From: Nitriliruptoraceae bacterium
GTDB taxonomy: Bacteria; Actinomycetota; Nitriliruptoria; Nitriliruptorales; Nitriliruptoraceae
Direction of reading: 5' to 3'
Assembly: GCA_007118045.1 (NCBI GenBank)
Contig: SKTG01000068.1
Location: 1-52,893, forward strand
DNA: 52,893 bases
Below the pieces are notes generated by a model. It made no database searches, was not told the DNA's origin, and saw only the letters and a list, made by a program, of their open reading frames with translations. Made by a program: the position numbers and the translations under genes. Positions 2,850-32,682 of this stretch are shown here, in pieces (position 1 is the first letter of the stretch; the number at the start of each line of letters is the position of its first letter).

Positions 2850-3000
2850 CGCTCACCTCCCGCGGGTCGACGGGCACTGCTCCCAGCTTCGCTCACGACG
2901 GCCACGGTGTCAGCGGTCCACGGGATGACAGTGAAGCATGCTCGATGCTAGGTTCCTGGCAACAACGGGAGTCCCCGCCGAGGGGGGTCGAAGGAGCGGG

Positions 3001-14352: not shown

Positions 14353-15627
14353 TCACGGTTCGGGCCGGGGCTGGAGTGGGTCCGCGTCGAGGTCCTCGAG
14401 TTCGGTGCCTCGGGTCTCTGGCAGTGCGCCGAATCCGAGCGCCGACAGGGCGACGAGGCCACCGAGCAGTCGAGCGGGGACCGCGAAGCTTCCGGTGATC
14501 TCGGCGAGTGCGCCGAAGGCGCTGAGCCCGAGGACCGCGCCGAGCACCGCGGTCACCGTGAGCCAGCCGGCGACGGTCGCACGGACGGTGGTGGGGACCA
14601 GCTCCGCCGCGAGCGTGCCCTGGGCCGGAGCGAAGGCGCTGGCCAGCAACACGGTGGTCAGATAGCCGACGGCCAGCGCCGCGGATCCACCCGAGTAGGC
14701 GATGGCCACCGCGATCCCGGTGCCGGACATCGCCAGCGCCCCGGTGATGCGGCGCCCGAACCGGTCCGCGCTCCAGCGACCGAGCAGGATGCCGGTCAGC
14801 CCGGCCGGTCCGGCGGCCAGCACGAAGGACGACAGCTGTAACGGTGTCGCTCCCAGCACCCGTTCGCCGTAGACGAACAGGTAGGTGAATCCCGGGCCGG
14901 TCGTGATGGCGATCGCCCCGACCAGCGAGGCCAGCAGGGTGACACGGCCACGTAGATGACGTGGTACGGCACCCGGCAAGCCTCGGGCATGGGTGCGGAC
15001 GACCGCGATCGCCGGCTCCCGGATCCAGCGGGTGAGCAGTGGCATCAGCAGGAGGGGGGCGAGCGCGAACAGGGTGACGACGCGGAACGACGGCTCCCCG
15101 GGCAGTAGTCCGCGGCCGACCGACACCAGCCCCGACCCGAGGCCGTATGCGACGGTGATCAGCGCGATCGCACCGGCGCGGTCGACCGAGCGTGATTCCT
15201 CGGCGGCGACCACGCCTGCCACGGCGTTCACGGTCGACAGGAACGGGCGCGCTATCGCGACCAGGGCCACATACCACCAGAACCCTGGTGATGCTGCGGC
15301 GAGACTGGTGAGCGAGAGTGCCAGCGTGGCGACCGTGAGCAGCAGCCGGCGCCGCCCCAGACGGTCCGCCAGGGCCGCCAGGGGCAGGCTCGCGAGCGAC
15401 GCCAGGCGGATCACTGACAGCGCGATCCCGATCGTGGTCACCGGGAGCCCGAGCTGGAACGGGGTGTCGTCGCTGGCAGGCGGATGGCTGAGGTCGGCAG
15501 CGACGTCGCCGATGACGACCGTGACCCCGAACGCCGAGATCCCGGCGCCGACCGACAGCACCGCTACGGCCAGAACCGGGGCGGTCAGCCACGACCGGAC
15601 GTGATGGTGGCCGTGCTCGCCGGTCAC
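14353..15627 (-). CDS. MFS transporter, candidate lysophospholipid transporter (LplT-like)
   Basis: ~12 predicted TM segments with an MFS loop DRLGRRRLL. The GTG start at 15627 overlaps the stop of the upstream acyltransferase gene (GTGA). Confidence 0.78.
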   Translation of the reverse strand: MTGEHGHHHVRSWLTAPVLAVAVLSVGAGISAFGVTVVIGDVAADLSHPPASDDTPFQLGLPVTTIGIALSVIRLASLASLPLAALADRLGRRRLLLTVATLALSLTSLAAASPGFWWYVALVAIARPFLSTVNAVAGVVAAEESRSVDRAGAIALITVAYGLGSGLVSVGRGLLPGEPSFRVVTLFALAPLLLMPLLTRWIREPAIAVVRTHARGLPGAVPRHLRGRVTLLASLVGAIAITTGPGFTYLFVYGERVLGATPLQLSSFVLAAGPAGLTGILLGRWSADRFGRRITGALAMSGTGIAVAIAYSGGSAALAVGYLTTVLLASAFAPAQGTLAAELVPTTVRATVAGWLTVTAVLGAVLGLSAFGALAEITGSFAVPARLLGGLVALSALGFGALPETRGTELEDLDADPLQPRPEP

Positions 15628-18440
15628 TCGAGAGCCGGCTCGCCGCAGTGGCGCAGGATCTCCGCGCGGGTGGCGGCCTGCAGGTCGACGGCGCCTCTCC
15701 ACCCGGGGTGAGTGGGGGAGAGTGGGGCGGCGATCGTGACCTTGATGGGACCTCGTCGGGGCATGCGACGATCGACCGGGAGGATCCGTCGGGTGCCGCG
15801 CAGCGTCACCGGCACGACCGGGACGCCAGCCTCCGTGGCGACCACGAACGCACCCATGTGGAACGGCTCGAGTCCCACGCCACGTGAGCGGCGCCCTTCA
15901 GGGAAGAACGCGACGACGCGTCCCGATCGCAGGGTCCGGGTGAGCACGCGGCTGTCCTCGACCCCGCGTGCCCGGTCACCGCGCTCGATCAGGTGCGTCT
16001 CCAGCCGCCGCAGGAAGACCCGTGCGAACGGGTTGACAGCCAACCCACCGACCGCCGGGAACACCGCCGGCTCCGGGAGGACGACGGCCAGCACGAGCGG
16101 ATCGAGGTTGCTCGCGTGGTTGGCGGCGACGACGTAGGGCCTGGCCGTGAGCAGATGCTCAGCGCCCTCGATCGACAGGCGGATCCCGCTCAGGTGGAGC
16201 AGTAGCCGGCCGGCCCCGCGCACGATCCGCCATCGACGGCGAGCACCCGGGACGACGGCCACGAGCACCCACACGACCGCGGCCAACGACACGAACAGCG
16301 AACTGGCGTAGAGGCCGTACACCGCTTCGACGCTCCTTCGAGCGGCACGGCTGACCCGGGCGGGCAGGCTGGTGGCCGCGAGTCGGAGCAGCTGCCACCA
16401 CACCGCCTGCCGCGACCCACCGAGCTGGCCGTTCTCGTAGCGCTCCCGGACCTCGGCGCGTCGGATCTTGCCGCTGGAGGTCTTGGGCACCACGCCGGGA
16501 AGGGCGAGCAGGACCTCGTCAGGGGGCGCCCCGACGAGATCGGTCACGGCTTCGTTGACGTGCCGACGGAGGCGGGTCTGGTCCTCCGCCTCGGTCAGCC
16601 GAGTCTCGGCGAGCACCACCAGACGCTCGGTGCCCACCGTCGGGTCGGTGGTCGAGAAGACCGCCACACAGCCTTTGCGCACACCTGGCACCGCACCGAC
16701 GGCCTCCTCCAGCTCGGCCGGGTGCAGGTTCCGCCCGGCCCGGATGATCACGTCCTTGACCCGCCCGGTCAGGTACAGGTCACCGGCGGCCAGGTAACCG
16801 AGATCGCCCGAGTCGAGCCAGTCACCATCGAACAGCCGCCGGGTTGCGGGCCGGTTGCGGAAGTAGCCTGCGGTCGCTGACGGACCCCGGAACTCGACAC
16901 GGCCCTCGACGCGTTCGCCGAGCGTCGTGCCCGCCCGGTCCGCGATCCGAACCTCGTGGCCCGGCAACGCCCGCCCGCAGGCCACGAACCGGGCGGCGGT
17001 CGCATCATCGTGTGCCGCGGGTACCGCCTGGCTCGCCCGGGCCAGCGGCTCACGGGCAACCCGGTCGATGATCACGCCACGTTCCAACGGCGGCACGGTG
17101 AGCGCCACCGCGGACTCCGCCAGCCCGTAGACCGGCGTTATCGCACCGGGCCGGAGCCCCACGTCAGCGAACCGCTTGGCGAACCGGGTGACCGTGGACG
17201 GACTGACCGGCTCGGCGCCACTGAACGCCAGCCGCCAGCTTCCGAGATCCAGACCCTCGAGCTCGTGATCCTCGATCCGGCGCAGGCACAGCTCGTAGCC
17301 GAAGTTGGGCCCACCCGACACGGTGCCACCGTGATCGTGGATCGCCCACAACCAGCGGGCGGGGCGGGTGAGGAACCTCAACGGGGACATGACCACGAAC
17401 GGGATACCGAAGTAGAGGCTGAGCAACCAGGAGCCGATCAGGCCCATGTCGTGGTACAGCGGCAGCCAGCTGACGAACACATCGGTGGGCTGGATGGCAC
17501 CCGCCTGACCCATCGCGCGGATGTTCGCGAGCAGGTTCGCATGGCTGAGCACCACCCCCTTCGGATCACCGGTGCTGCCCGAGGTGTACTGCAGCAGCGC
17601 CGTGTCCGACGGCCCTGGGGTTCCTCGCGGCGGACCGACGGCGGCCGCCCGGAGGTCGCCGACGATCACCACGGCACGCAACGTGGTGATCTGCGGTGCG
17701 ATGAGCCGTGCCAGCTGGCGCGCCTCGGGCACGGTGATCAGAGCCACCACCTGGGCGTTGTCGAGCAGGAGTGCGTGGCGACGCAGATGCTCCCCCAACC
17801 CGGAGGGCCGTCCCGGTGGGTAGATGGGGACCGGCACGCAGCCGGCGAGCAACACCCCGAGGAACGTGACGAAGTAGTCGAGGCCGGTCGGCAGCATGAT
17901 CGCCACCGTGCTGCCGGGCGGTAGCTGACGCTCGCGCAGACCCGCCGCCACCACGGAGGCCTCCCGCCACAGTGCACCGAAGCTCAGGTCCTCGACCGCC
18001 CCCGCCTCACCCAGCAGGCGGACGTGCGTTCGGTCGGGCTGTGCGGTGGCGTGCCACTGCAACACCTCGACGAGGGTGTCGACCTCGCCGGGATCGGGGC
18101 CCGGACCCGCCGAGCTGTCCAGCTGCGACGTCGCGGTGGGGAGCTGTCCGGCACGACCGGGCACCGAGGAGGCCGTGGTCAGGCTCGCCAGCAGATCCCG
18201 TGGCGTCTCGACGCTCGCAAGCAACTCGTCCGGCAACGCCACGTCGAAGAGCTCCTCGACGCGTACGAGGAGCTCGGCGACCGCCAGGCTGTCCAGACCG
18301 AGGTCGGTGTCGAGGCGGGAGTCCAGCCGAACCGAAGAGGTGCCGACAGCGGGACGGACCTCGGCAACGAGCTCCCGGAGGGCCTGGAGCAAGGAGGCCA
18401 CGGTCGGATCCTCGGGCGACGTCGTCGGCTGCTCCTGCAT
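15624..18440 (-). CDS. tri-domain ACP - fatty acyl-AMP ligase - (TM) - PlsC-type lysophospholipid acyltransferase (Aas-like)
   Basis: N-terminal carrier domain with LGLDSLAVAELL. Adenylation motifs LQYTSGSTGDPKGVV, GYFRN, GDLGY and SSGKIRR. Two hydrophobic helices. Acyltransferase motifs ANHASNLD (HX4D) and FFPEGRRS. The start is taken at MQEQPTTS (ATG 18440), not the ORF-track start at 18836. Confidence 0.88.
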   Translation of the reverse strand: MQEQPTTSPEDPTVASLLQALRELVAEVRPAVGTSSVRLDSRLDTDLGLDSLAVAELLVRVEELFDVALPDELLASVETPRDLLASLTTASSVPGRAGQLPTATSQLDSSAGPGPDPGEVDTLVEVLQWHATAQPDRTHVRLLGEAGAVEDLSFGALWREASVVAAGLRERQLPPGSTVAIMLPTGLDYFVTFLGVLLAGCVPVPIYPPGRPSGLGEHLRRHALLLDNAQVVALITVPEARQLARLIAPQITTLRAVVIVGDLRAAAVGPPRGTPGPSDTALLQYTSGSTGDPKGVVLSHANLLANIRAMGQAGAIQPTDVFVSWLPLYHDMGLIGSWLLSLYFGIPFVVMSPLRFLTRPARWLWAIHDHGGTVSGGPNFGYELCLRRIEDHELEGLDLGSWRLAFSGAEPVSPSTVTRFAKRFADVGLRPGAITPVYGLAESAVALTVPPLERGVIIDRVAREPLARASQAVPAAHDDATAARFVACGRALPGHEVRIADRAGTTLGERVEGRVEFRGPSATAGYFRNRPATRRLFDGDWLDSGDLGYLAAGDLYLTGRVKDVIIRAGRNLHPAELEEAVGAVPGVRKGCVAVFSTTDPTVGTERLVVLAETRLTEAEDQTRLRRHVNEAVTDLVGAPPDEVLLALPGVVPKTSSGKIRRAEVRERYENGQLGGSRQAVWWQLLRLAATSLPARVSRAARRSVEAVYGLYASSLFVSLAAVVWVLVAVVPGARRRWRIVRGAGRLLLHLSGIRLSIEGAEHLLTARPYVVAANHASNLDPLVLAVVLPEPAVFPAVGGLAVNPFARVFLRRLETHLIERGDRARGVEDSRVLTRTLRSGRVVAFFPEGRRSRGVGLEPFHMGAFVVATEAGVPVVPVTLRGTRRILPVDRRMPRRGPIKVTIAAPLSPTHPGWRGAVDLQAATRAEILRHCGEPALE

Positions 18441-18674
18441 CCCGCGACCGTCCCTCCCACCACCGGAGGTCACGGTATCGCCGTCTGGGGGACCGAGGCG
18501 GCCGTCCTTCGAGGTACGCGGGTGGGTACCGCCGCATCCCTGCGCGCGGCCGAGGGCGTCCTGACCACGCTCGTCCGGTTCGCTCCCGCAGCCATCGTTC
18601 TCGAGTGGCCGCTGCCGTCGGTGCGGTTGCCGAGATCGAGGACCAACGGCCCTGGTCCCCCGCCTCGTGTCGGC

Positions 18675-18689
18675 GCATCCTAGGGATGC
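18675..18689. promoter_or_regulatory. 15-bp palindrome GCATCCTAGGGATGC in a divergent intergenic region
   Basis: Perfect inverted repeat between the aas-like gene (minus strand) and the riboswitch/PRTase gene (plus strand). Candidate operator only. Confidence 0.3.
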
Positions 18690-18702
18690 GACGTTCGTGT
18701 TG

Positions 18703-18818
18703 TGCGCGGGAGCTGGCGCCCCTTCGACGGAGAGATCGGTCGGAGGCACCCAGCTGAGAGGCCGCGAGAGCGGTGACCGCCAGGACCTGATCCGGACCAT
18801 ACCGGCGGAGGAAGCGCA
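18703..18818 (+). promoter_or_regulatory. TPP (THI-box) riboswitch aptamer
   Basis: Read by eye: UGCGC...GCGCA (P1), GCGGGAGCUGG, a long P3 (GCUGG/CCAGC plus CCUUCGAC/GUCGGAGG), CUGAGAGG, a P3a hairpin CCGC-GAGA-GCGG, UGACCG, and ACCUGAUCCGGACCAUACCGGCGGAGGAAG. It ends 32 nt before ATG 18851. Confidence 0.8.
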
Positions 18819-18850
18819 GCGCGGACGTCGCACCACTGTGTGGGTGAGCC

Positions 18851-20182
18851 ATGCGTTTCGCCAACAGACGTGAGGCAGGTCGCCGACTCGGCGCGAACCT
18901 GGGCCATCTCGTTACGGAGCAGCCCGTCGTGGTCGGGCTACCTCGTGGCGGGATCCCCGTGGCCTACGAGGTCGCACAGGCGCTGGGCGCCCCACTCGAC
19001 GTGCTCGTGGTCCGCAAGCTCGGCTGTCCGTGGCAACCCGAGCTGGGTGTGGGCGCGCTGGGCGAGGGCGGCATCCGGCTTCTCGACGGATCGCTCATGC
19101 GCTCGACCGGCGTCACCACCGCGGAACTGGAGGTGGTGGCCAGCCGTGAAGCCGCCGAACTCGAGCGCCGGGTCCAGCGGTACCGGGCCGCGCGTGACCC
19201 GTTGCCCGTCGCTGGGCGCACGGTGGTCGTGGTCGATGACGGGCTCGCCACAGGTTCGATGGCCCGGGCCGGGATCGAGGTCCTGCGACGTCGCGGCGCC
19301 CGACGGATCGTGCTGGCTGTCCCGGTGGCACCCGCCGGCACCCTCTCGCAGCTGCAGGCCGTCGCGGACGAGGTGGTGTGTCTACACAGCCCCCGCGCGT
19401 TCGGCGCGATCGGCCAGTTCTACGACGATTTCGCGCAGACCTCCGACGAGGAGGTCGCTGGGCTGCTGGCTGCCGAACCGGTGGTCATGGGCGGGGCTGC
19501 GTCGCCGGCTGACGATCCGCCCGAGGACGTGGTGGTCACGGTGAACGGTCTGGAACTCGCCGGGACGTTGCACGTGCCGCCTGGCGCGACCGGGATCGTG
19601 CTGTTCGCCCACGGCAGCGGCAGCAGCCGGCTCAGCCCCCGCAACCTCGCTGTGGCACGCACGTTGAACAGCGGTGGTCTCGCCACCCTGTTGTTCGACC
19701 TGTTGACCCTCGACGAGGCCCTCCACCGCACCCGGGTGTTCGACATCGAACTCCTGGCCGCACGCCTGGTCGGGGCCACCGGCTGGCTCAGGACACGACC
19801 GGACCTCGGGCACCTGCGGGTCGGCTACTTCGGGGCCAGCACCGGCGCCGCCGCCGCGCTGCGGGCCGCAGGGCTACTCCGCTCCGAGATCGGTGCGGTC
19901 GTCTCACGCGGTGGACGTCCCGACCTGGCAGCACCGCACCTCGGCGAGGTCACGGCGCCGACGCTGCTCATCGTCGGCTCCCGCGACGAGGCGGTGTTGC
20001 GCCTCAACGAGCGGGCAAGGCGCCAGCTGCGTTGCCCGAACCATCTGGCGATCGTCCCGGGAGCGACCCACCTGTTCGAAGAGCCCGGTGCACTCGAGAA
20101 GGTCGCTGAGCTCGCGAAGGATTGGTTCGCGCGCCCTCTGGGCGCCACACCCGTACCGAGACAACCATCGACTCTGCGGTAG
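18851..20182 (+). CDS. phosphoribosyltransferase domain fused to a dienelactone-hydrolase-type alpha/beta hydrolase
   Basis: MRFANRREAGRRLG...VVGLPRGGIPVA, the PRPP motif VVVVDDGLATGSM, and a C-terminal FAHGSGSSRLSPRN...GASTGAAAAL...VPGATHLFEEPG. Confidence 0.88.
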   Translation: MRFANRREAGRRLGANLGHLVTEQPVVVGLPRGGIPVAYEVAQALGAPLDVLVVRKLGCPWQPELGVGALGEGGIRLLDGSLMRSTGVTTAELEVVASREAAELERRVQRYRAARDPLPVAGRTVVVVDDGLATGSMARAGIEVLRRRGARRIVLAVPVAPAGTLSQLQAVADEVVCLHSPRAFGAIGQFYDDFAQTSDEEVAGLLAAEPVVMGGAASPADDPPEDVVVTVNGLELAGTLHVPPGATGIVLFAHGSGSSRLSPRNLAVARTLNSGGLATLLFDLLTLDEALHRTRVFDIELLAARLVGATGWLRTRPDLGHLRVGYFGASTGAAAALRAAGLLRSEIGAVVSRGGRPDLAAPHLGEVTAPTLLIVGSRDEAVLRLNERARRQLRCPNHLAIVPGATHLFEEPGALEKVAELAKDWFARPLGATPVPRQPSTLR

Positions 20183-20239: not shown

Positions 20240-21862
20240 ATGGCCGCCTACACGGAGCTGTGCTTCGGCGATGCGGCCCGCACGGCGCTGCTGGCAGGGA
20301 CGTCCGCGCTCGCGGATGCGTTGCGTCCGACCCTCGGGCCGCAGTCACGCGCGGTGCTGATCGAGCGCAAGTGGGGTGTGCCGCTGGTGTGCGATGACGG
20401 GGTGACCATCGCCAAGACCCTCAAGCTGAAGGATCCGGCGCAGGACCTGGGTGCACAGGTACTCAAGCAGGCCGCCATGCGTACCGGGGATGCGGTCGGT
20501 GACGGCACCACCACCTCGACGCTGCTTGCCCACGCGATGCTGGCCGAGGGGATCCGCAACGTGGTCGTCGGGGCGAGTCCGGTCGAGATCAAGCGCGGTA
20601 TGGAGCGAGGGCTCGGGGCCGCGATCGATGCGCTGGCCGGCCTGTCCAGGCCTGTCGAGGGCCGGACCGACATGGCCCACGTAGCCGCGGTCTCGGCACA
20701 TGGGGAGACGGAGATCGGTGAGCTGGTCGCCGATGCGGTCGAGAAGGTCGGCGAGGAGGGCGTCATCGAGGTCGAGGAGGCCAAGGGGATCGAGACCATC
20801 CTCGACGTCGTCGAAGGTATGCAACTGGACGAGGGCTATCTCTCGCCGTACTTCGTCACCGACCCCGAGCGGATGGACGCCGTGCTCAACGAGCCGCTCG
20901 TTCTGCTCCACGAGAAGAAGATCTCCGCGGTTGCCGACCTGCTCCCCCTGCTCGAACAGGCCGTCAACGCCGGACGTCAGCTGCTGGTGGTGGCGGAGAA
21001 CCTCGAAGGCGAGGCACTGGCCACCATCGTGGTCAACAAGTTGCGCGGCACCATCGCCGCCGCCGCGATCAAGGCACCCGGATTCGGTGAGCGGCGCCGG
21101 GCGATGCTCGAGGACATCTCCGTACTCACCGGCGGGACCGTGATCAGCGACGAGCTCGGGCTCAAGCTCGAGAACGTCAAGATCGACGAGCTCGGCACCG
21201 CAGAGCGGATCCTGGTCGACAAGGACACCACCACCATCATCAGCGGCGCCGGCGACCCGGCGGCGATCGAAGGACGCTGCAACGAGCTGCGCCGACAGAT
21301 CGATGAGACCGACTCGGACTGGGACCGCGAGAAGCTGCAGGAACGGCTCGCACGGCTCGCCGGCGGCGTCGCGGTCATCCGTGTCGGTGCCGCCACCGAG
21401 TCCGAGCTCAGACGCCGCAAGGACGCGTTCGATGACGCGATCAGCTCCACCAAGGCCGCCGTCGCCGAGGGCATCGTCCCCGGCGGCGGCGCCGCTCTGG
21501 TACGCGCCATCGCTGAGGTGGAAGCCGCGGAGGTGGGCTGCGACGGCGACGAACGCACCGGCGTACACATCCTGGCCCACGCGTTGCAGGTCCCGGCTGG
21601 TCAGATCGCCGACAACGCCGGCTCAGACGACGGTGTCGTGATCGAACGGATCCGGGCCGGCGACGGGTTCGAGGGCTTCGACGCACGCACCCGCGAGTTC
21701 GTCGATCTCGATACCGCCGGAGTCATCGACCCGACCAAGGTCGTGCGCATCGCGCTGGAGAACGCCGTTTCGGTCGCGGGTGTGATGCTGCTGGCTGCCG
21801 CGACCATGGTCGAACTCGAAGACACCGAGACCCCAGCCTCACCCGAGCCGGAACTCATGTGA
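20240..21862 (+). CDS. groEL: chaperonin GroEL paralog (divergent, no adjacent groES)
   Basis: 540 aa with GDGTTTSTLLA, IEVEEAKG, KAPGFGERRRAMLEDI, VAVIRVGAATE and GIVPGGG. A GGGAGGA Shine-Dalgarno precedes the ATG. Confidence 0.93.
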   Translation: MAAYTELCFGDAARTALLAGTSALADALRPTLGPQSRAVLIERKWGVPLVCDDGVTIAKTLKLKDPAQDLGAQVLKQAAMRTGDAVGDGTTTSTLLAHAMLAEGIRNVVVGASPVEIKRGMERGLGAAIDALAGLSRPVEGRTDMAHVAAVSAHGETEIGELVADAVEKVGEEGVIEVEEAKGIETILDVVEGMQLDEGYLSPYFVTDPERMDAVLNEPLVLLHEKKISAVADLLPLLEQAVNAGRQLLVVAENLEGEALATIVVNKLRGTIAAAAIKAPGFGERRRAMLEDISVLTGGTVISDELGLKLENVKIDELGTAERILVDKDTTTIISGAGDPAAIEGRCNELRRQIDETDSDWDREKLQERLARLAGGVAVIRVGAATESELRRRKDAFDDAISSTKAAVAEGIVPGGGAALVRAIAEVEAAEVGCDGDERTGVHILAHALQVPAGQIADNAGSDDGVVIERIRAGDGFEGFDARTREFVDLDTAGVIDPTKVVRIALENAVSVAGVMLLAAATMVELEDTETPASPEPELM

Positions 21863-22004: not shown

Positions 22005-23135
22005 GTGGCCGAAGGTGCGGTGACCCTGTTCCTGTGCGGCGACGTGATGCTCGGTCGAGGCGTGGATCAGATCTTGGCGCACCCTGGCGATCCCAGGCTG
22101 CAGGAGCGGCTGATCACGGACGCCCGGGACTACGTCGCACTGGCCGAGCGGATCAACGATCCCATCCCCCGTCCCGTCGATGGTTCGTGGCCATGGGGAG
22201 ACGCACTGCCTGTGCTCGACGATCTGGCACCCGACGTGCGCGTCATCAACCTGGAGACCGCGGTGACCAGCTCCGACGACTTCGCCGCGGGCAAGGCCGT
22301 CCACTACCGGATGTCACCTGACAACCTGGCCTGCCTCCTCGCCGTCGAACCGGACGTGTGCGTGCTCGCGAACAACCACGTACTCGACTTCGGGGTGAAG
22401 GGGCTGGAACAGACCCTCGACGTGCTGTCCTCTGCAAGCCTGCGCAGCGTTGGAGCGGGACGTGACGAGGAGCAGGCTCGGCGACCGGCCACGGTCCCCC
22501 TCGAAGGCGGAGGGCGGGTGCTGGTCTTCGCGTGGGGGATGGCCTCGAGCGGCGTCCCCGTGGCGTGGGACGCGACCAGACGGAGCCCTGGGGTCGCGTT
22601 CCTTCGCGAGCCATCGGTAGCCGCCGTCGACGAGGTCGCTGATCACATCTCGGAGTACCGACGCACCGGCGACATCATCGTCGCGTCGCTCCATTGGGGG
22701 TCCAACTGGGGTTACGACATCACCCGAGATCAGGTTCGCTTCGCTCACGCGCTGATCGATGAAGGCGTGGATGTCGTGCACGGCCACTCCTCGCACCATC
22801 CCCGTCCACTGGAGCTGTACCGCGACCGACTGATCCTGTACGGCTGCGGCGACCTCATCAACGACTACGAGGGCATCACCGGCCGCGAGAAGTACCGCGC
22901 CGATCTCAGACTGCTCTACCTGGTCTCGCTTGATGGATCCACCGGCGAACTCATCGGGTTGAGGATGATCCCTATGCGAGCCCGGCAGCTGCGCCTGCGA
23001 CACGCGTCGAGCTCCGACCTGGACTGGCTCAGGGATCGCTTGGACCGAGTGAGCCGGCCCTTCGACGTGCGTATCGATCGAGAACGGAAAGGCGCGCTGA
23101 CGGTCCGGTCCCTACCTCGAGAGGGATCCCCGTGA
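22005..23135 (+). CDS. CapA/PGA_cap-family metallophosphatase-like protein
   Basis: LFLCGDVMLGRGVDQIL, INLETAVT, LANNHVLDFG, SLHWGSNWGY and VHGHSSHHPRP. GTG start with a GGGAGGAA Shine-Dalgarno. Confidence 0.85.
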   Translation: MAEGAVTLFLCGDVMLGRGVDQILAHPGDPRLQERLITDARDYVALAERINDPIPRPVDGSWPWGDALPVLDDLAPDVRVINLETAVTSSDDFAAGKAVHYRMSPDNLACLLAVEPDVCVLANNHVLDFGVKGLEQTLDVLSSASLRSVGAGRDEEQARRPATVPLEGGGRVLVFAWGMASSGVPVAWDATRRSPGVAFLREPSVAAVDEVADHISEYRRTGDIIVASLHWGSNWGYDITRDQVRFAHALIDEGVDVVHGHSSHHPRPLELYRDRLILYGCGDLINDYEGITGREKYRADLRLLYLVSLDGSTGELIGLRMIPMRARQLRLRHASSSDLDWLRDRLDRVSRPFDVRIDRERKGALTVRSLPREGSP

Positions 23136-25578: not shown

Positions 25579-26619
25579 TCATCCCTGTTCCGCAACGGTG
25601 TCGTGGTCCAGCTCATCGAGGGCGGCGAAACGCGCGATCGTGTTGAACTTGTGGAACGTGTGCTCCGCATCCAGGGTCCGGACCGTTCCCGAACTCGACC
25701 GCATCGACAGCGACTGGGTCGTGGCGCCGCGCCCGCTGAAGCGCACACCGCGCAGCAGCGCACCATCGGTGATGCCGGTGGCCGCGAAGATGGCACGATC
25801 ACCGCGCACCAGATCGTCCTGACTCAGCACCCGATCGAGGTCGTACCCCCCCTCCAACGCTTGATGGCGTTCTGTATCGTCGCGGGGCGAGAGCCGACCG
25901 TAGAGCACCCCGCCGAGGCACTTCATAGCGCACGCGGTGATCACCCCCTCGGGCGTGCCGCCCGTGCCGACGGAGATGTCGACGCCGGTCTGTGGACGGG
26001 CCGCCATGATCGCCCCGGCGACATCACCGTCGATCAGGAACACGATCCGAGCGCCGGCTTCGCGGATGTCGGCCACGAGCTGTTCGTGACGGGGCCGGTC
26101 CAGGACGCTGACCGTCACGTCGCCGACCCGGCCCCCCTTGGCCTTCGCCACGCGTCTCAGGTTCTCGTCGATCGGCGCCTCGAAATCGACCACCTCCGCA
26201 GCGAGCGGTCCGACCGCTAGCTTGTCCATGTACATGCACGGACCGGGATCGAACATCGATCCCCGCTCGGCCAAGGCGATCACGGCCAGTGCGTTCGGCA
26301 GCCCCTTGGCGGTGAGCGTGGTGCCCTCGACCGGATCGACCGCTATGTCGACCCCCGGTGGCGAGCCGTCGCCGATCCGCTCACCGTTGTAGAGCATCGG
26401 CGCCTCGTCCTTCTCGCCCTCCCCGATGACCACGGTCCCGTCCATCGCGATGCCGTCGAGCGTGCCACGCATAGCGTCCACGGCCGCCTGGTCAGCCGCC
26501 TCCTTGTCACCCAAGCCCATCCGGCGGGCAGCAGCCATCGCGGCGGCTTCCGTGACCCGCACCATCTCGAGAGCGAGGTTGCGATCGGAGTCGCCGAGGT
26601 CGTGGTGCTGCGTCATCAT
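25579..26619 (-). CDS. glpX: class II fructose-1,6-bisphosphatase
   Basis: MMTQHH...[13 protein letters not shown]..., [25 protein letters not shown] and [19 protein letters not shown] Shine-Dalgarno precedes the ATGATG. The upstream ORF extension is rejected. Confidence 0.92.
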
Positions 26620-26750
26620 GGCGGCTCCTCCGCGAGGTCTCCCGACCGGCGCCGCTGCCCACCCCGCTGGGCCTCGAGGTGTGTGACGGACCTCCGGCGA
26701 CCACCGTAGGCAGCTCTCGAGATGTGGGTCAACGGTCATCCGCGGGCCCC

Positions 26751-26764
26751 GCACGGATCCGTGC
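26751..26764. promoter_or_regulatory. 14-bp palindrome GCACGGATCCGTGC in the glpX/glpF divergent region
   Basis: Perfect inverted repeat. A second inverted repeat, GCGCAC-N13-GTGCGC, follows about 20 nt later. Candidate operator; no glpR gene is in the window. Confidence 0.3.
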
Positions 26765-26965
26765 TACCAACCATCCTCCGCGCACCCTGCATCCGTTTGT
26801 GCGCACCGGAGGACCCGGGGGCTGGGGCTTCACCTAGGTTCGGCGACGCGAGGAGGTGTCCACCGTGCCGTGCCCGGTCGGAACACTCGGAGGGACTTGG
26901 GATCGCCGCGCTCGCGCGAGGCCCGAGGACGCTGGTTCGGACCGCGGTGACCGAGCCACGCCGAG

Positions 26966-27733
26966 ATGATCGATCTCTACCTCGCCGAGCTGGTCGGAAC
27001 GACGATCCTGATCCTGCTCGGCAACGGTGCCGTAGCCAACGTCGTCCTCAAGGGCTCCAAAGGTGAGAGCTCAGGCTGGATCGTCATCACCACCGGGTGG
27101 GGACTGGCGGTCGCGATCGCCGTGTACACGGTGGGCTGGGTCAGCGGCGCTCACATCAACCCGGCTGTCACCTTCGCTTTGGCAGTGATCGGGGAGTTTT
27201 CCTGGGCCCGGGTCCCCGGCTACGTGGCAGCGCAGCTGATCGGCGCGGCGGTGGGCGCGTTGCTGGTCTACCTCGCCTACCTCCCCCACTGGGAGCCGAC
27301 GGAGGACCCGGATCTCAAGCTCGCCGCCTTCGCCACCACACCGGCGGTCCGGCGTCCCGCGCTGAACCTCGTGACCGAGGCGATCGGTACCGGGATGCTG
27401 GTGTTCGGTGTGCTGGCGATCTTCGCCAACACGGTGCCCATCGAGAGGGCCGGGGAAGTGGACCTCTCCGCGCTGTTCGCGACCGGTTTCGGCCCGCTGC
27501 TGGTGGGCTTCCTGGTCTGGGCCATCGGCCTGTCGCTGGGAGGTCCGACGGGCTACGCGATCAACCCGGCCCGGGACCTGGGACCACGCATCATGCACGC
27601 ACTGCTACCCATCCCTGGCAAGGGCTCGAGCGACTTCGCCTACGCCTGGGTTCCGGTCGTCGGTCCACTGGTCGGCGGGGTGCTCGGCGCGCTGGTGTTC
27701 CGCGCACAGTTCTTGGCCGACCTCGTGTCCTGA
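26966..27733 (+). CDS. glpF: aquaglyceroporin / glycerol uptake facilitator
   Basis: Two NPA boxes (SGAHINPAVT and GYAINPARD) and 6 TM segments. Confidence 0.92.
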   Translation: MIDLYLAELVGTTILILLGNGAVANVVLKGSKGESSGWIVITTGWGLAVAIAVYTVGWVSGAHINPAVTFALAVIGEFSWARVPGYVAAQLIGAAVGALLVYLAYLPHWEPTEDPDLKLAAFATTPAVRRPALNLVTEAIGTGMLVFGVLAIFANTVPIERAGEVDLSALFATGFGPLLVGFLVWAIGLSLGGPTGYAINPARDLGPRIMHALLPIPGKGSSDFAYAWVPVVGPLVGGVLGALVFRAQFLADLVS

Positions 27734-27790
27734 GTCGCTGGAGCCACCTACCGCAGACCGACCGTCGAACCGTTCGAAGACGGAGACATC

Positions 27791-29311
27791 ATGACCGCAT
27801 CGTTCATCGGCGCGATCGACCAGGGCACCACGAGCACCCGCTTCATGGTGTTCGACCACGGTGGCAACGAGATCGCCAAACACCAGCTCGAACACGAGCA
27901 GATCATGCCCCGAGCGGGCTGGGTCGAACACGACCCGACCGAGATCTGGGAGCGGGCGCGCACGGTCATCGAGACCGGGCTGTCTCACGCACGGATGTCG
28001 GCCGAGGATCTTGCCGCACTCGGTGTCACGAACCAGCGCGAGACTACGGTGGTGTGGGATCCGAGGACGGGGCGTCCCTACTACAACGCGATCGTGTGGC
28101 AGGACACCCGCACCGACCGGATCGCCTCCGCACTGGAGCGCGACGGCAAGGGCCAGGTCATCCGGGAGAAGGCCGGCATCCCGCCTGCCACCTACTTCTC
28201 CGGCGGCAAGATCCAGTGGATCCTGGACAACGTCGACGGGGTACGCGTCGCAGCCGAGCGTGGGGAGGCGCTGTTCGGCAACACCGACACCTGGATCCTG
28301 TGGCACCTGACGGGCGGCCGCGACGGCGGCGCCCACGTCACCGACGTGACGAACGCCAGCCGCACCATGCTCATGGATCTGGAGACGCTGGACTGGGACG
28401 ACGAGCTGCTCGGGTTCTTCGGCATCCCGCGCCAGATGCTGCCCGAGATCCGACCGTCCTCGGACCCCACCTTCTATGGCACGACACGACCGAGCGGACC
28501 CTTCGCAGCGGAGATCCCGATCGCCGGGGACCTCGGTGACCAGCAGGCCGCGACGGTCGGTCAGGTCTGCTTCTCCCCGGGTGAGGGTAAGAACACCTAC
28601 GGGACGGGCAACTTCCTGCTCCTCAACACCGGCACGGAGCCCATCCGTTCCGGCAACGGCCTGCTCACGACCGTCGGCTACCGCATGGGCGACGCCGCAC
28701 CGGTCTACTGCCTCGAGGGTTCGATCGCCGTGACGGGATCGGCGATCCAGTGGCTGCGTGATCAGTTCGACATCATCGGCAACGCGGCGGAGACCGAGGG
28801 GTTGGCCGGTTCGGTCGATGACAGCGGTGGCATGTACTTCGTCCCCGCCTTCTCCGGGCTGTTCGCGCCCTACTGGCGCTCCGACGCACGTGGCGCGATC
28901 GTCGGGCTCTCGCGCTTCAACACGAAGGCACACCTGGTCCGAGCCACGCTCGAGTCGATCTGCTTCCAATCGCGTGACGTTGCCGAGGCGATGGAGAAGG
29001 ACTCCGGGGTGCACCTGGAGTCCCTCAGGGTCGATGGCGGCGCGACCGTCAACAACGTGCTGATGCAGCTGCAGGCCGACATCCTGGGCGTGCCCGTGTC
29101 GCGGCCGGTGGTATCGGAAACCACCAGTCTGGGCGCGGCGTACGCAGCCGGGCTCGCGGTGGGGTTCTGGGAGAACGAGGACTCGCTCCGCTCCAACTGG
29201 AACGAGGACCGCCGCTGGGAGCCACGGTGGAGCGAGAACCAGCGGGAGAGCGCGTACGCCGGATGGAAGAAGGCGGTCGAACGTACCTTCGACTGGGTGG
29301 AGGTCGAGTAG
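27791..29311 (+). CDS. glpK: glycerol kinase
   Basis: [42 protein letters not shown] and VDGGAT. Confidence 0.95.
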
Positions 29312-29359
29312 GGGCGGGACCACGTCACGCCAGAGCGTCCGCGGTCGCGCCCCGCCGGC

Positions 29360-31060
29360 TCAGCCGGTCGGTCCGACCCTGACGTCTCGAGCACCCAGCC
29401 GAGCCGCGTCGGCGGTCTGGTCGTCCGGCATCCGCTGGGATTCGACCTCCGCGGCCACGCGGGCCTCGTAGTGCTCGATCTCCCGCGCGACGTCGTCCTC
29501 GTCCCATCCGAGCACCTCGGCCATGCGTCGCGCCGCGACCCTGGCGGCAGCCACGCCCCGATCGAACGTCTCGATCGAGATCCGGGTCCGGCGGGTGAGC
29601 ACGTCATCAAGGTGGCGTGCCCCCTCGTGGCTGGCGGCGTAGAACAGCTCCACCTCGAGGTAGTCATCGGCGCCGTCAACGGGCACACCGAGCTCTGGCC
29701 GGGCCGAGACGAGATCGAGCAGCTCCGTGATCAGAGAGCCGTAACGTCCGAGCAGGTGCTCGATCCGGGTCGGGTGCAAGCCGGACTCCTCAGCGAGCCG
29801 GTGCCGTTGGTTCCGCATCGCGTGGTAGCCCTGGGCGCCGAGCAGCGGCGTGCGGTCGGTGACCGACGGGGTCGCACCCGTTGCGAGGCTACGCAGTGCC
29901 GCATCGACCGCGTCCTTGGCCATCACGCGGTAGGTGGTGTACTTCCCACCAGCGACGGTGATCAGCCCCGCCACCGACTGTGCGACCGCGTGTTCGCGTG
30001 ACAATCTGCTGGTCGCAGCGGACTCGCCAGTGAGCAGGGGGCGCAGCCCTGCTTGCACACCCTCGACATCCTCCTGGGTCAACGGCGTGCTGAGCACGTC
30101 GTTGACGCGATCCAGGAGGTACTGGATGTCGCTGGCCGACGCCGCCGGATGCGCCAGATCGAGGTCCCAGTCGGTGTCGGTGGTCCCGATCAGCCAGTGC
30201 CGTCCCCACGGGATGACGAACAGTACGGACGTCTCCGTGCGCAGGATGATGCCCGAATCCGAGTGGATGCGGTCCCGCGGAACCACCAGGTGGATGCCCT
30301 TCGATGCCCGAACGTTGATCCGTCCACGTCCCGCCATCGACTGGATCTCGTCCGACCAGACACCGGTCGCGTTGATCACCTGCCGGGCATGCACCTCGAG
30401 TTCCCGACCACCCTCGTGATCGATCACGTGCGCGCCGACGACCCGCTCGCCTTCTCGCAGCAATCCGACGACCCGGGTCGAGGTCATCACGGCGGCGCCG
30501 AACGCGGCAGCGGTCCGTGCGATCTCCATCGTGTGCCGTGCGTCATCGACCTGCGCGTCGTAGTAGCGGATGGCGCCGACCATGGCGTCGGCGCGCAGGG
30601 CCGGTGCGAGCTCAGCGATCCCGCGCCGGGTCAGGTGACGGTGCCGCGGCAGCTGCTTCGCCCCGCCGATCGTGTCGTACATGGCGATGCCGGCACCCAC
30701 GTACAGTCGCTCCCATCCCCGATGCTGGAGCGGGTACAGGAAGGAGACCGGTCGCACGAGGTGCGGCGCGAGCTCGTGCAGCAGCAGTCCACGCTCCTTG
30801 AGCGCCTCACGAACCAGGGAGAAGTTCAGCTGTTCCAGGTAGCGCAACCCCCCGTGGATCAGCTTCGACGACCGGCTCGACGTGCCTGCCCCGAGGTCGC
30901 GTTGCTCGACCAACGCCACGCTCAAGCCACGCGTGGCTGCATCCAGCGCGATACCTGCACCGGTGACGCCACCGCCGATCACCAGGATGTCGAAGACCTC
31001 GTCGCTCATCCGGACGAGGTCGGATCGCCGCCGGTCGGGTGACAGAGCGACCGGGTCCAT
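29360..31060 (-). CDS. glpD: FAD-dependent glycerol-3-phosphate dehydrogenase
   Basis: The start MDPVALS has an AGGAG Shine-Dalgarno. FDILVIGGGVTGAGIALDAATRGLSVALVEQRDLGAGTSSRSSKLIHGGLRYLEQ. The upstream 170 codons of the ORF track are rejected. Confidence 0.92.
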   Translation of the reverse strand: MDPVALSPDRRRSDLVRMSDEVFDILVIGGGVTGAGIALDAATRGLSVALVEQRDLGAGTSSRSSKLIHGGLRYLEQLNFSLVREALKERGLLLHELAPHLVRPVSFLYPLQHRGWERLYVGAGIAMYDTIGGAKQLPRHRHLTRRGIAELAPALRADAMVGAIRYYDAQVDDARHTMEIARTAAAFGAAVMTSTRVVGLLREGERVVGAHVIDHEGGRELEVHARQVINATGVWSDEIQSMAGRGRINVRASKGIHLVVPRDRIHSDSGIILRTETSVLFVIPWGRHWLIGTTDTDWDLDLAHPAASASDIQYLLDRVNDVLSTPLTQEDVEGVQAGLRPLLTGESAATSRLSREHAVAQSVAGLITVAGGKYTTYRVMAKDAVDAALRSLATGATPSVTDRTPLLGAQGYHAMRNQRHRLAEESGLHPTRIEHLLGRYGSLITELLDLVSARPELGVPVDGADDYLEVELFYAASHEGARHLDDVLTRRTRISIETFDRGVAAARVAARRMAEVLGWDEDDVAREIEHYEARVAAEVESQRMPDDQTADAARLGARDVRVGPTG

Positions 31061-31185
31061 CGGAACTCCTCGGTCCGGGAACGCGCCACAGCAGCCGTCT
31101 TCGACCCTAGCGTGGTGGTGAAGCTCTGACGAGGGCTCGTTGGTCGGAGCCGGCGCCGAGGTTTCCGGCGGCGCCCTGAGGGGCG

Positions 31186-32682
31186 TCAGACCTCGTGCTC
31201 CGCTGGGAGGCGACCGGCGGCGACCGCCTTGACCAACCTCTCGTGATCGCGCTCGGTCTGGTCGGCGTACGCGCGGGCGAACCGGCTCAGAGCGACGTCC
31301 ACCTCGTCTGACGAGCCGAGGTAGCCCACGATCATCGAGGCGCCGCTCGTACGTGCGTGGCCCTTCGCGAGCAGACGGCCACAGATGCCGGCGTAGTCGG
31401 CCATAGCGTGGGGCTTGATCTTGTGCAGCTTGATCGCGCCCTTCATGTTGCGGAACTGCCGGACGTAGAACTGGCGTCCGTCCACGGTGGTCCAACCGAG
31501 CAACGGGTCGCTGACCGTCTGCAACGCCTGCTGGTACTCGACGACCCGCTCCCCCTGGTGGGCGTGCCATGCCGAGTCACCGTGGATGAACGGAGCGATG
31601 ACCGACCGCCTCGCCTGCTTCAGCTGCAGGAACAGCACGTCGTCCGGGCTGCTGCCCTCCAACAGCGCGACGTAGGCCCGCAACCCGACGCTGCCGACGC
31701 CGACCACCTTGTGGGCGATGTCTACAAGGGTGTACCCGCCGATCACCCTCCGCCAGTGGGGTGACAGGGTCTGCAGGTACCGATCGACCCCTTCCGCCAG
31801 GCTCTCACGTTCCTGCTCCTCCAGGCGGGTGATCAGCGGCGGTTCCTCGACGATCCGGCGTTGTGACCCGTGCTCCTCGGTGAAACGGGGCAGCGCCCGG
31901 TCGCTGGTGCGGCTGCGCGCCCGACTGGAGGCCTTGTCGATGCGTTTGCGCAGCGCCTTGGTCGAGGCCAGCTCCAACAGCTGCTCGCGGTCGAGCCACT
32001 GGAACGAACGGTCGAGCAGTGGTTGCTCGTAGAGCTGCCACAACTGGTCGCGGTAGGACGCACAGCAGGCGACGACGGCATCCTCGCAGGCATCCTCGTC
32101 CGCACCGTTCTCGCGTCCGGCCACCCACACGCTGGCGCTGAGACGCCGTAGGTCCCACTCCCACGCTCCGGGATGCGCCTCGTCGAAGTCGTTCATGTCG
32201 AGCACGAGCTGTTGCTCCGGCGACGCGTAGAAGCCGAAGTTGCCGAGGTGGGCGTCGCCGCCGATCACCGGCGTGATCCCCGTCGCCGGAAGGCCCGCGA
32301 GGTCCCGGGCCATCACGCCTGCCGAGCCTCGCAGGTACCCGTACGGCGATGCCATCATGCGACCCACGCGAAGAGGCACGAGCCAGTCGATGCGCCCCTC
32401 GTGGATCGTCGCCAGCTGGTCGATCGGATCGGGACGGTCCGGCGGCTCGCCCCATTCCCCGAGCGACGACCGTGGGGTTCCCTTCCGCAGCGCCTTCCCC
32501 AGGGTGCGTCGCTGCTCGCGCGGGATGGGTCGGTCCCGCACGGATGCGTACGGGGCGCCTTCGGCGGTCGCGAGGACGACGTGACCTTCGTCGCCCGCGT
32601 CGGGCTCGAGCTCCTCGGCTACGTCACCCACCGTGCAACCTTCCCACCCCACACGCGCGCGCCCGTATGCGGCCTCGCCCAT
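31186..32682 (-). CDS. DUF2252 domain-containing protein
   Basis: SPYGYLRGSAGVMA, GDAHLGNFGFY, LDMNDFDEA and VRQFRNMKG are typical of DUF2252. The start is taken at MGEAAY. Confidence 0.8.
   Translation of the reverse strand: MGEAAYGRARVGWEGCTVGDVAEELEPDAGDEGHVVLATAEGAPYASVRDRPIPREQRRTLGKALRKGTPRSSLGEWGEPPDRPDPIDQLATIHEGRIDWLVPLRVGRMMASPYGYLRGSAGVMARDLAGLPATGITPVIGGDAHLGNFGFYASPEQQLVLDMNDFDEAHPGAWEWDLRRLSASVWVAGRENGADEDACEDAVVACCASYRDQLWQLYEQPLLDRSFQWLDREQLLELASTKALRKRIDKASSRARSRTSDRALPRFTEEHGSQRRIVEEPPLITRLEEQERESLAEGVDRYLQTLSPHWRRVIGGYTLVDIAHKVVGVGSVGLRAYVALLEGSSPDDVLFLQLKQARRSVIAPFIHGDSAWHAHQGERVVEYQQALQTVSDPLLGWTTVDGRQFYVRQFRNMKGAIKLHKIKPHAMADYAGICGRLLAKGHARTSGASMIVGYLGSSDEVDVALSRFARAYADQTERDHERLVKAVAAGRLPAEHEV

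Follow-up and report, generated by a model that had tools for sequence, protein, structure and literature searches.

A probable TPP-class aptamer between a predicted Dev-box-like promoter and a phosphoribosyltransferase-hydrolase gene in uncultured Actinomycetota

The leader RNA and the gene that follows it

The window analysed here is a whole 52,893-nucleotide stretch of DNA from a Nitriliruptoraceae bacterium (contig SKTG01000068.1), and its subject is the 5′ leader of a plus-strand gene with its ATG at 18851, which carries an RNA resembling the aptamer of the thiamine pyrophosphate (TPP) riboswitch (Rfam family RF00059). The gene encodes a type-I phosphoribosyltransferase (PRTase) fused to an alpha/beta hydrolase. 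The THI-box motifs that an earlier note on this DNA had listed for the leader are all present where it had placed them, on the coding strand. The features that bear on the argument are the following.

18637-18654, plus strand: Dev-box-like operator CGAGGACCAACGGCCCTG with the core AGGAC-N4-GGCCC, assigned from conservation, enrichment and the Dev-box rules
18676-18681, plus strand: −10-like hexamer CATCCT (CAYNNT in all lineages), with no variation at the C, the A and the last T in alignment A3
18688-18831, plus strand: TPP-class aptamer with an extended P1, assigned from the RF00059 match, the minimum free energy (MFE) fold and conservation in seven lineages
18831-18850, plus strand: putative minimal expression platform, a hairpin sequestering the Shine-Dalgarno (SD) sequence by pairing CACC (18831-18834) with GGUG (18843-18846), AGCC lying between the hairpin and the ATG, assigned from folding and comparison
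18851-20182, plus strand: fusion of a type-I PRTase and an alpha/beta (dienelactone hydrolase-like) hydrolase, 443 aa, assigned from PF00156 and fold matches

A relaxed Rfam scan of positions 18550-18900 (351 nt) matches RF00059 on the plus strand at 18696-18830 over model positions 1-105 of 105, with 48.5 bits and an E-value of 1.1e-8 for the 351-nt search, or about 2e-6 when scaled to the whole window. The Rfam gathering score for this family is 54.3 bits, which is why the default Rfam scan of the whole window returns 0 matches. The earlier note had counted a sub-threshold score or a hit on the wrong strand against an aptamer; the strand is right and the match is full-length, but the score does lie below the threshold. 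The alignment traces the deficit to P3, where 28 nt are inserted, to P3a, which lacks one base, to the fourth pair of P4, which is a non-canonical G·G, and to the AA of J4/1, and the E-value in the order of 1e-8 together with the full-length alignment shows that the match is not a product of chance.

The aptamer is the predicted MFE fold of the leader (z = −3.1), and the three-way junction of P1, P2-P3(-P3a) and P4-P5 is the MFE fold in six of the seven lineages that carry it. P1 forms an 18-bp helix between 18688-18705 and 18814-18831, within which the core register that fits both P2 and the model is UGUGC (18701-18705) with GCGCA, in place of the UGCGC/GCGCA proposed earlier. The end of the aptamer had been put at 32 nt before the ATG, which is correct for the core P1 (GCGCA ends at 18818); because P1 continues outward as the 18-bp helix, however, the structured element ends only 19 nt before the start codon. 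The closing helix encloses P2, then a long P3 whose apical loop GAGAG is invariant, then CUGAGA, P3a and the P4/P5 arm ACCUGAUCCGG-ACCAUA-CCGGCGGAGG. The pocket motifs CUGAGA (J3/2) and ACCUGAU...GCG.AGG (J4/5, J5/4) are intact in the window, and the TPP contacts, which we take from the thiM and thiC structures to be CUGAGA in J3/2, CCUGAU in J4/5 and GCG in J5/4, are all represented. Every carrier has CCAU in L5 where the consensus is UAAU, and every carrier likewise has AA in J4/1. GAGAG in the P3 apical loop (18730-18736 in the window) does not vary between any of the lineages, and apical loops are not usually so constant. Assignment of the predicted RNA to the TPP class is well supported by these features, and TPP itself is the presumed ligand.

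The PRTase half of the encoded protein matches Pribosyltran (PF00156) over residues 22-192 with 54.3 bits against a cut-off of 26.3, and a profile of 17 homologues has strong matches to two structures alone, 1wd5 (TT1426) over residues 1-207 and 2o2g over residues 224-431. The same two entries, followed by generic esterases, are the top fold matches of an AlphaFold2 model with a pLDDT of 87. The N-terminal half is 46% identical to 1wd5 (target TM-score 0.84) and the C-terminal half 60% identical to 2o2g, an Anabaena 'dienelactone hydrolase' (target TM-score 0.89); both are uncharacterised, stand-alone single-domain entries from structural genomics, whereas in the window protein the two domains are fused, as the earlier note had proposed. 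The phosphoribosyl pyrophosphate (PRPP) loop is VVVVDDGLATGS, with D129, D130, G131, T134 and G135 invariant in alignment A1, where the hydrolase nucleophile motif GASTG (S330) and H407 are invariant as well.

The window protein is 56% identical over residues 3-426 to a protein encoded in a Mycobacterium metagenome-assembled genome (MAG; locus L092). This protein has relatives in M. haemophilum, M. malmoense, M. scrofulaceum and others, and Mycobacterium has many full-length homologues with both domains and a length of about 443 aa. M. tuberculosis does not appear by name among the best 120 matches of a bridge search from the mycobacterial homologue. Its Rv0571c presumably has the two-domain architecture and a length of 443 aa. 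According to PMC5309233, Rv0571c belongs to the DosR regulon and is a putative PRTase with a 'function not yet characterized'. The likeness to Rv0571c suggested in the earlier note is therefore borne out indirectly, through the mycobacterial homologues and this published description, Rv0571c itself being compared by description.

Distribution and conservation of the leader

The PRTase-hydrolase family has at least 8000 matches, from which 179 homologue loci were collected. A full-length RF00059 match also precedes the PRTase-hydrolase gene in six further lineages, scoring 42.1-51.7 bits and lying 19-30 nt 5′ of the start codon, so that the aptamer is found upstream of orthologues, with compensatory changes in P3 and P3a. 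The carrier proteins, from seven lineages in all, are 73-99% identical to the window protein (L001, 73%; L162, 82%; L169, 75%; L171, 76%; L175, 79%; L176, 75%). Five lineages of close relatives with 70-83% identity (L163, L164, L165/166/167, L168 and L179) have no aptamer, and their genes follow directly on other genes. It is likewise missing from at least 130 homologues that are more distant. Among the loci with at least 170 nt of upstream DNA, 148 in all, no other aptamer was found before the homologues by motif search, by Rfam applied to regular-expression candidates or by a subgroup covariance model, R1; this model gives 153-173 bits in the seven lineages and does not exceed 23 bits in front of the remaining homologues. 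Regular-expression matches to the THI core at loci of Kutzneria (L127) and Streptomyces (L145) and at L066 and L034 were set aside as chance, with no Rfam match at E ≤ 1.

A neighbour-joining tree unites the carriers and the five aptamer-less lineages in one clade, at whose base the carrier L001 stands; a single gain with several later losses or leaderless duplications would produce such a pattern. In L169 and L170 (4001-4186; P0011, 499 aa) the public coding sequence (CDS) starts about 62 codons early and reads through the aptamer, and P0010 (505 aa) probably reflects the same artefact. At these two loci the riboswitch is thus hidden by the annotation.

The statistics on structure and covariation come from seven distinct but closely related leaders with a mean column identity of 95% over the aptamer. 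Base pairing is retained in 98.3% of cells across the seven sequences, against 34-49% when the partners are slid, and the alignment has three double-sided compensatory pairs, confined to P3, the P3 extension and P3a, and 13 extra pair types, with a covariation score that exceeds those of 499 of 500 shuffles. CUGAGA and ACCUGAUCCGG..CCGGCG.AGG are unchanged in all seven carrier lineages. Mean pairwise identity is 0.913 in the leader, 0.863 at codon positions 1 and 2, 0.660 at codon position 3 and 0.47 in the upstream DNA outside the box, and distances between leaders track distances between proteins. The agreement of the two sets of distances and the higher identity of the leader indicate that the RNA has been inherited vertically together with the gene and has evolved more slowly than positions constrained by the protein. 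Taken together, the RNA feature is real, conserved and under selection.

Predicted promoter, expression platform and genomic setting

Upstream of the aptamer, the block GGACC-N3-G-N-CCCTGG (18640-18655) is invariant in seven of seven carrier lineages, in the midst of flanking DNA that cannot be aligned (alignment A3), and lies about 30 nt 5′ of the first conserved RNA base. The box is enriched 33-fold upstream of genes of this family (0.54 per kb, against 0.016 per kb elsewhere), and carriers and aptamer-less relatives share its Dev-box-like form, (A/G)GGAC-N4-GNCCC. The distance from box to ATG is 51-80 nt in aptamer-less relatives with 56-63% identity and 210-222 nt in the carriers; the difference equals the aptamer of 142-144 nt plus its linker, which implies that the aptamer was inserted into an existing promoter and untranslated region (UTR). 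Dev boxes are 18-bp palindromes with the half-site G3-G4-G5-A6-C7, of which G5 and C7 are required for DevR to bind; they occur two or more in tandem, the proximal one 33-34 nt from the transcript start (PMC3177182). The window box has G5 and C7 in both half-sites and so obeys the sequence rule, which does not in itself imply the identity of the regulator. Perfect GGGAC-N4-GTCCC palindromes occur 52-84 nt upstream of the homologues at L011, L081 and L138, and sites matching at nine or more of ten positions are found in 19 of 143 upstream regions and in 3 of 141 control windows inside CDS.

The first conserved RNA base comes 7 nt after the CATCCT hexamer, and the box ends 33-34 nt before 18688. 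The transcript would thus start at about 18687-18688, the first base of the long helix, and the promoter upstream of the aptamer is probably of the DosR type. A scan with the sigma-70 consensus returns nothing at the CATCCT site. There is little sign that the box is a regulon-wide operator, with one further good site (9/10, before HSP20 in L179) and other dormancy-type genes at background. A NarL-type regulator (Response_reg and GerE) with a HisKA_3 kinase is encoded at L163 5392-6444 (minus strand), about 3 kb from an aptamer-less member of the clade, the pair being a DosRS-like candidate to act on the conserved box. Two homologues with 55% identity, at L009 (499-804) and L010 (745-1050), have a Dev-like box 305 nt before the start codon and not at 51-80 nt; their long leaders have no Rfam match at E ≤ 0.1 and may contain a small open reading frame (ORF) or some other leader element that has yet to be described.

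Downstream of the aptamer, the hairpin CACC(U)/(A)GGUG is found in six of the seven lineages with energies of −4.6 to −6.4 kcal/mol and loops that vary in sequence and length. In L169 an 11-nt insertion brings its own CACCU, and in L162 an alternative pairing of CUCU with AGGG is proposed by inspection alone. In relatives without the aptamer the UTR has a plain GGAGG site, and the SD hairpin is absent. The leader contains no terminator-like site, and an intrinsic terminator was accordingly discarded as the expression platform; the lack of a terminator together with the carrier-specific SD hairpin favours a translational OFF switch. Folding of the leader, which the earlier note had looked to for the platform, does return the aptamer as the MFE fold but yields no switch when the core is blocked. 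A switch by opening of P1 was rejected on the same result and because blocking the 5′ strand gives alternatives that are not conserved. Three anti-sequestor pairings drawn by eye, of GGAGG in P4 with a CCUCU linker, of the GAGAG P3 loop with a CUCUC linker and of GUGCGC in the start-codon region with the 3′ strand of P1, each fail in at least one lineage or lose to the 18-bp helix. In six of the seven lineages, the window being the exception, the pyrimidine-rich linker after P1 (CUCUC, CUCU or UUUUC) could pair with the GAGAG loop over 4-5 bp (L001, L162, L169, L171, L175 and L176), and such a pairing could form a pseudoknot joining the aptamer to the SD region. A kinetic, a tertiary or steric, or a Rho-coupled mechanism is possible as well.

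The history and mechanism proposed from these features would run as follows. The ancestor of one clade of uncultured Actinomycetota would have gained the aptamer by insertion behind a Dev-box-like promoter, older than the aptamer, and ahead of the ribosome-binding site. With the box-binding regulator in control, the transcript would begin at about 18688, and its nascent leader would fold into the three-way-junction aptamer with the 18-bp helix as its closing stem. At high TPP the aptamer with its ligand and the adjacent CACC/GGUG hairpin would block the SD sequence and the enzyme would not be made, and at low TPP translation would go ahead, so that the gene would be on only when a dormancy or stress regulator is active and TPP is low. 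In this scheme we infer which regulator binds the box, as well as the OFF polarity and control at the level of translation.

The genes that surround the PRTase-hydrolase gene in the window include the following.

20240-21862, plus strand: GroEL, passing the TIGR02348 equivalog cut-off
22005-23135, plus strand: PGA_cap/CapA-like gene, from a family match
15624-18440, minus strand: divergent fusion of acyl carrier protein (ACP), fatty-acyl-AMP ligase (FAAL) and acyltransferase, from the gene call in the 99%-identical contig L159
12294-14281, plus strand: RtcB-archease pair, adjoining a major facilitator superfamily (MFS) transporter and the FAAL fusion (together 14353-18440, minus strand)

The PRTase-hydrolase, GroEL and CapA-like genes share a strand and are separated by 57 and 142 nt, intervals in which there is neither a terminator-like site nor a Dev-like box, and GroEL and CapA may be co-transcribed with the PRTase-hydrolase gene. 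Since it passes the TIGR02348 cut-off, the chaperone is a true GroEL; its nearest named relatives outside its own clade are in Acidimicrobiia and Myxococcota MAGs at 65-69% identity, a mixture that gives no guide to taxonomy. A GroEL gene also stands 3′ of the aptamer-led gene in L169, and the window GroEL looks like an accessory paralogue tied to dormancy-type islands. The genes downstream vary among the carriers, however, being GroEL and CapA, GroEL and PspC, a GH65 phosphorylase, or a convergent HSP20. The suggestion in the earlier note that a GroEL/CapA chaperone module is the target is consequently not borne out; the PRTase-hydrolase gene is the only constant one and is therefore the aptamer's target. 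The PRTase-hydrolase, GroEL and CapA have no PADLOC match, and on this ground a role in a defence system was set aside. On the other side, some 410 nt separate the FAAL gene from the PRTase gene. The mechanical ORF for the ACP-FAAL-acyltransferase protein (1070 aa) overruns the aptamer, its real start being near 18440. A glycerol cluster at 25579-31570, with a glpX-type fructose bisphosphatase (minus strand), MIP/GlpF and an FGGY glycerol kinase (plus strand) and a GlpD-like FAD oxidoreductase (minus strand), appears unrelated.

No thiamine gene is present anywhere in the window or in the related loci inspected, and surveyed TPP-riboswitch targets are those of thiamin biosynthesis and transport only (PMC3766115), which upholds the claim that the target is not a thiamine gene. 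The flanking families are RtcB, archease, CapA and GroEL in the window; PfkB, SurE, GH65 and Usp in L171 and L176; S30AE, RtcB and archease in L175; HSP20 and HerA in L162 and L169; and S30AE, HSP20, PspC and CapA in the aptamer-less L179, with S30AE/HPF listed as well. The families of the DosR regulon given in PMC5309233 and PMC3177182 correspond to these neighbours, and the DevR promoter table lists HspX (Rv2031c), Rv2623, Rv2006/otsB and the Rv2628-Rv2631 operon (PMC3177182). Shared with the DosR/DevR promoters of M. tuberculosis are thus a gene of the Rv0571c family, neighbours of the RtcB, archease, CapA-like, HSP20, S30AE, Usp, PfkB and GH65 families, G5 and C7 in both half-sites and a box about 33 nt before the predicted start; the window differs in its degenerate box and in having no tandem second box identified.

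A second TPP aptamer lies at L013 2670-2819 (minus strand), where it was first flagged by the subgroup model and matches RF00059 with 39.6 bits (E 2.2e-5). It has a different P3, a 23-nt insertion in P3a and a canonical AGGGA, and it stands between archease (2955-3401, minus strand) and RtcB, about 50-65 nt 5′ of the RtcB start (near 2617, minus strand). A CBS gene (1165-1587, minus strand) comes next, and the locus also has a convergent PRTase-hydrolase gene with 51% identity. Apart from the carriers' aptamers, this single instance is the one TPP core found in 1.29 Mb of homologue-locus DNA. The RtcB reading frame appears to be interrupted in the contig. The L013 arrangement would fit recruitment of TPP sensing to dormancy-type genes and seems hard to square with a purely thiamine-enzymatic account.

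Readings of the link between TPP and the gene

The reading we consider the likeliest, with a fair measure of doubt, is that a TPP sensor has been recruited to a dormancy-type gene through insertion into an older, probably DosR-type promoter, with probable repression of translation. The leaning rests on a promoter that predates the aptamer, on neighbours of dormancy families, on the restriction to one clade of a family with at least 8000 members and on the second aptamer at RtcB. The earlier note had offered either a thiamine-related role for the enzyme or recruitment of the sensor to a stress or chaperone module; the data lean to the second in the form of a stress or dormancy gene, and the first stays as a rival. 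The comparison with known TPP riboswitches (RF00059; E. coli thiM and thiC, actinobacterial thiC leaders) shows common ground in the P1-P5 junction, the CUGAGA arm, the pyrophosphate-sensor arm ACCUGAUC...GCG.AGG, the place in the 5′ UTR on the coding strand and the absence of a terminator with a short SD hairpin, as in translational Gram-negative and actinobacterial examples. The window departs from them in its sub-gathering score, 18-bp P1, 28-nt P3 extension with GAGAG and AA in J4/1, and also in its non-thiamin target gene, the Dev-box-like promoter upstream and the lack of an identified pairing that competes with P1. Cobalamin riboswitches offer a precedent for control outside biosynthesis, as they regulate the B12-independent isozymes metE and nrdDG. 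In both cases a cofactor sensor is wired outside the pathway for synthesis and uptake of the cofactor, but for cobalamin the logic is understood as the replacement of a cofactor-dependent enzyme, unlike the TPP link to the PRTase-hydrolase or to RtcB in L013.

Several observations weigh against recruitment of a TPP sensor to a DosR-type promoter. On the RNA side, every carrier scores under the gathering threshold (42.1-51.7 bits against 54.3), J4/1 is AA where a highly conserved GA is expected, and the comparison covers just seven close sequences in which the P1 core, P2, P4 and P5 are invariant and compensatory changes are confined to P3 and P3a; the invariant core helices are therefore uninformative either way on covariation. 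The SD hairpin is weak, and in L162 the best local fold reaches −3.0 kcal/mol and leaves CUCU/AGGG unpaired. When the aptamer core is blocked in equilibrium folding, the 18-bp helix still forms and the accessibility of SD and AUG is unchanged. With respect to the promoter, the window box matches 8 of 10 core positions of GGGAC-N4-GTCCC, there is no clear second tandem box in alignment A3, no DosR orthologue (Response_reg with GerE) was found among the window ORFs scanned, and Dev-like sites are only weakly enriched before other dormancy-type genes. The equivalence with Rv0571c, finally, is drawn from the literature description and the mycobacterial homologues, not from direct alignment.

A wider version of the recruitment reading holds that TPP serves as a checkpoint for dormancy or growth arrest, riboswitches having been recruited at least twice independently, to the PRTase-hydrolase gene and to RtcB in L013, downstream of stress-regulated promoters; this is a tentative idea that we would not favour on present data.

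The strongest rival is that the leader provides ordinary feedback on an enzyme of the thiamine pathway, the PRTase-hydrolase catalysing an unrecognised step in the synthesis or salvage of thiamin or a precursor, for example a PRPP-dependent reaction coupled to ester or amide hydrolysis (compare PurF). All catalogued targets of TPP riboswitches are indeed genes of thiamin biosynthesis or transport (PMC3766115), and riboswitch association has earlier been used to propose salvage genes, oarX being an example (PMC11223231). Both catalytic motifs are intact and invariant in a family without an assigned function, and the aptamer stays with the PRTase-hydrolase gene across four neighbourhoods. The aptamer is nevertheless carried by one small clade of the large family and is missing from relatives with 70-83% identity in unrelated operons, no thiamine gene is nearby in any locus inspected, the neighbours and the upstream box are of dormancy-regulon type, and in L013 a TPP aptamer precedes RtcB, an RNA ligase without a plausible role in thiamine metabolism. 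A thiamine-pathway enzyme is on balance unlikely, though it deserves to be taken seriously.

Variant riboswitches that have changed ligand while keeping their fold are known in other classes, and the RNA could accordingly be a TPP-like variant that senses a thiamine precursor, damaged thiamine or a relative of the enzyme's substrate. The sub-gathering scores of all members, the AA in J4/1 and CCAU in L5 of every carrier (against GA and UAAU) and the atypical gene association would agree with such a change. The TPP-contact nucleotides are nevertheless all present and invariant, and the peripheral insertions in P3 and P3a explain the score deficit, which makes a variant ligand improbable. Slightly less probable again is a leader that works independently of any ligand, the aptamer locked by 18 bp acting as a stable 5′ structure for stabilisation of the mRNA or processing by RNase; the helix forms regardless of the core with constant predicted SD accessibility, and transcription is predicted to begin at the helix's first base, yet the pocket and both sensor arms are invariant although codon position 3 is at 66% identity, which a mere stem-loop would not need, and the carrier-specific SD hairpin suggests a platform. 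Chance resemblance, or a riboswitch relic decaying after rearrangement, could be read from the sub-threshold score and the lack of a thiamine gene downstream, but is effectively refuted by the full-length match at an E-value of 1e-8 and by retention in seven lineages above the identity of protein-constrained codon positions with compensatory changes.

What appears to be new is a putative TPP-class RNA with an 18-bp P1, an extended P3 and a sub-threshold score on a gene of dormancy-regulon type, downstream of a Dev-box-like promoter. The literature search found no TPP riboswitch paired with a PRTase, a dienelactone hydrolase or RtcB, and the accounts of the DosR regulon in PMC5309233 and PMC3177182 contain no riboswitch. 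The whole subgroup scores 42-52 bits, under the 54.3 bits of the gathering threshold, and is thus missed by pipelines, an annotation blind spot.

The arrangement suggests, from comparison of the loci, that some uncultured actinobacteria tie the PRTase-hydrolase gene to their vitamin B1 status. It would extend the TPP-riboswitch regulon, the most widespread riboswitch regulon, to a family without a known thiamine link, and as regulatory tinkering it would place a sensor of about 144 nt between an older operator and promoter and the ribosome-binding site, with a two-input gate as the predicted outcome. For the dormancy gene family itself, the riboswitch link is a clue to function of a kind that has repeatedly led to the discovery of gene functions. 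If TPP does act as a checkpoint, functions in repair and dormancy would be made only when the stress regulator is active and vitamin B1 is short, and a dormancy regulon would for the first time be seen to include a cofactor riboswitch. A DosR-regulon gene that has lacked an assigned function ever since the regulon was defined would in that case also gain its first physiological clue.

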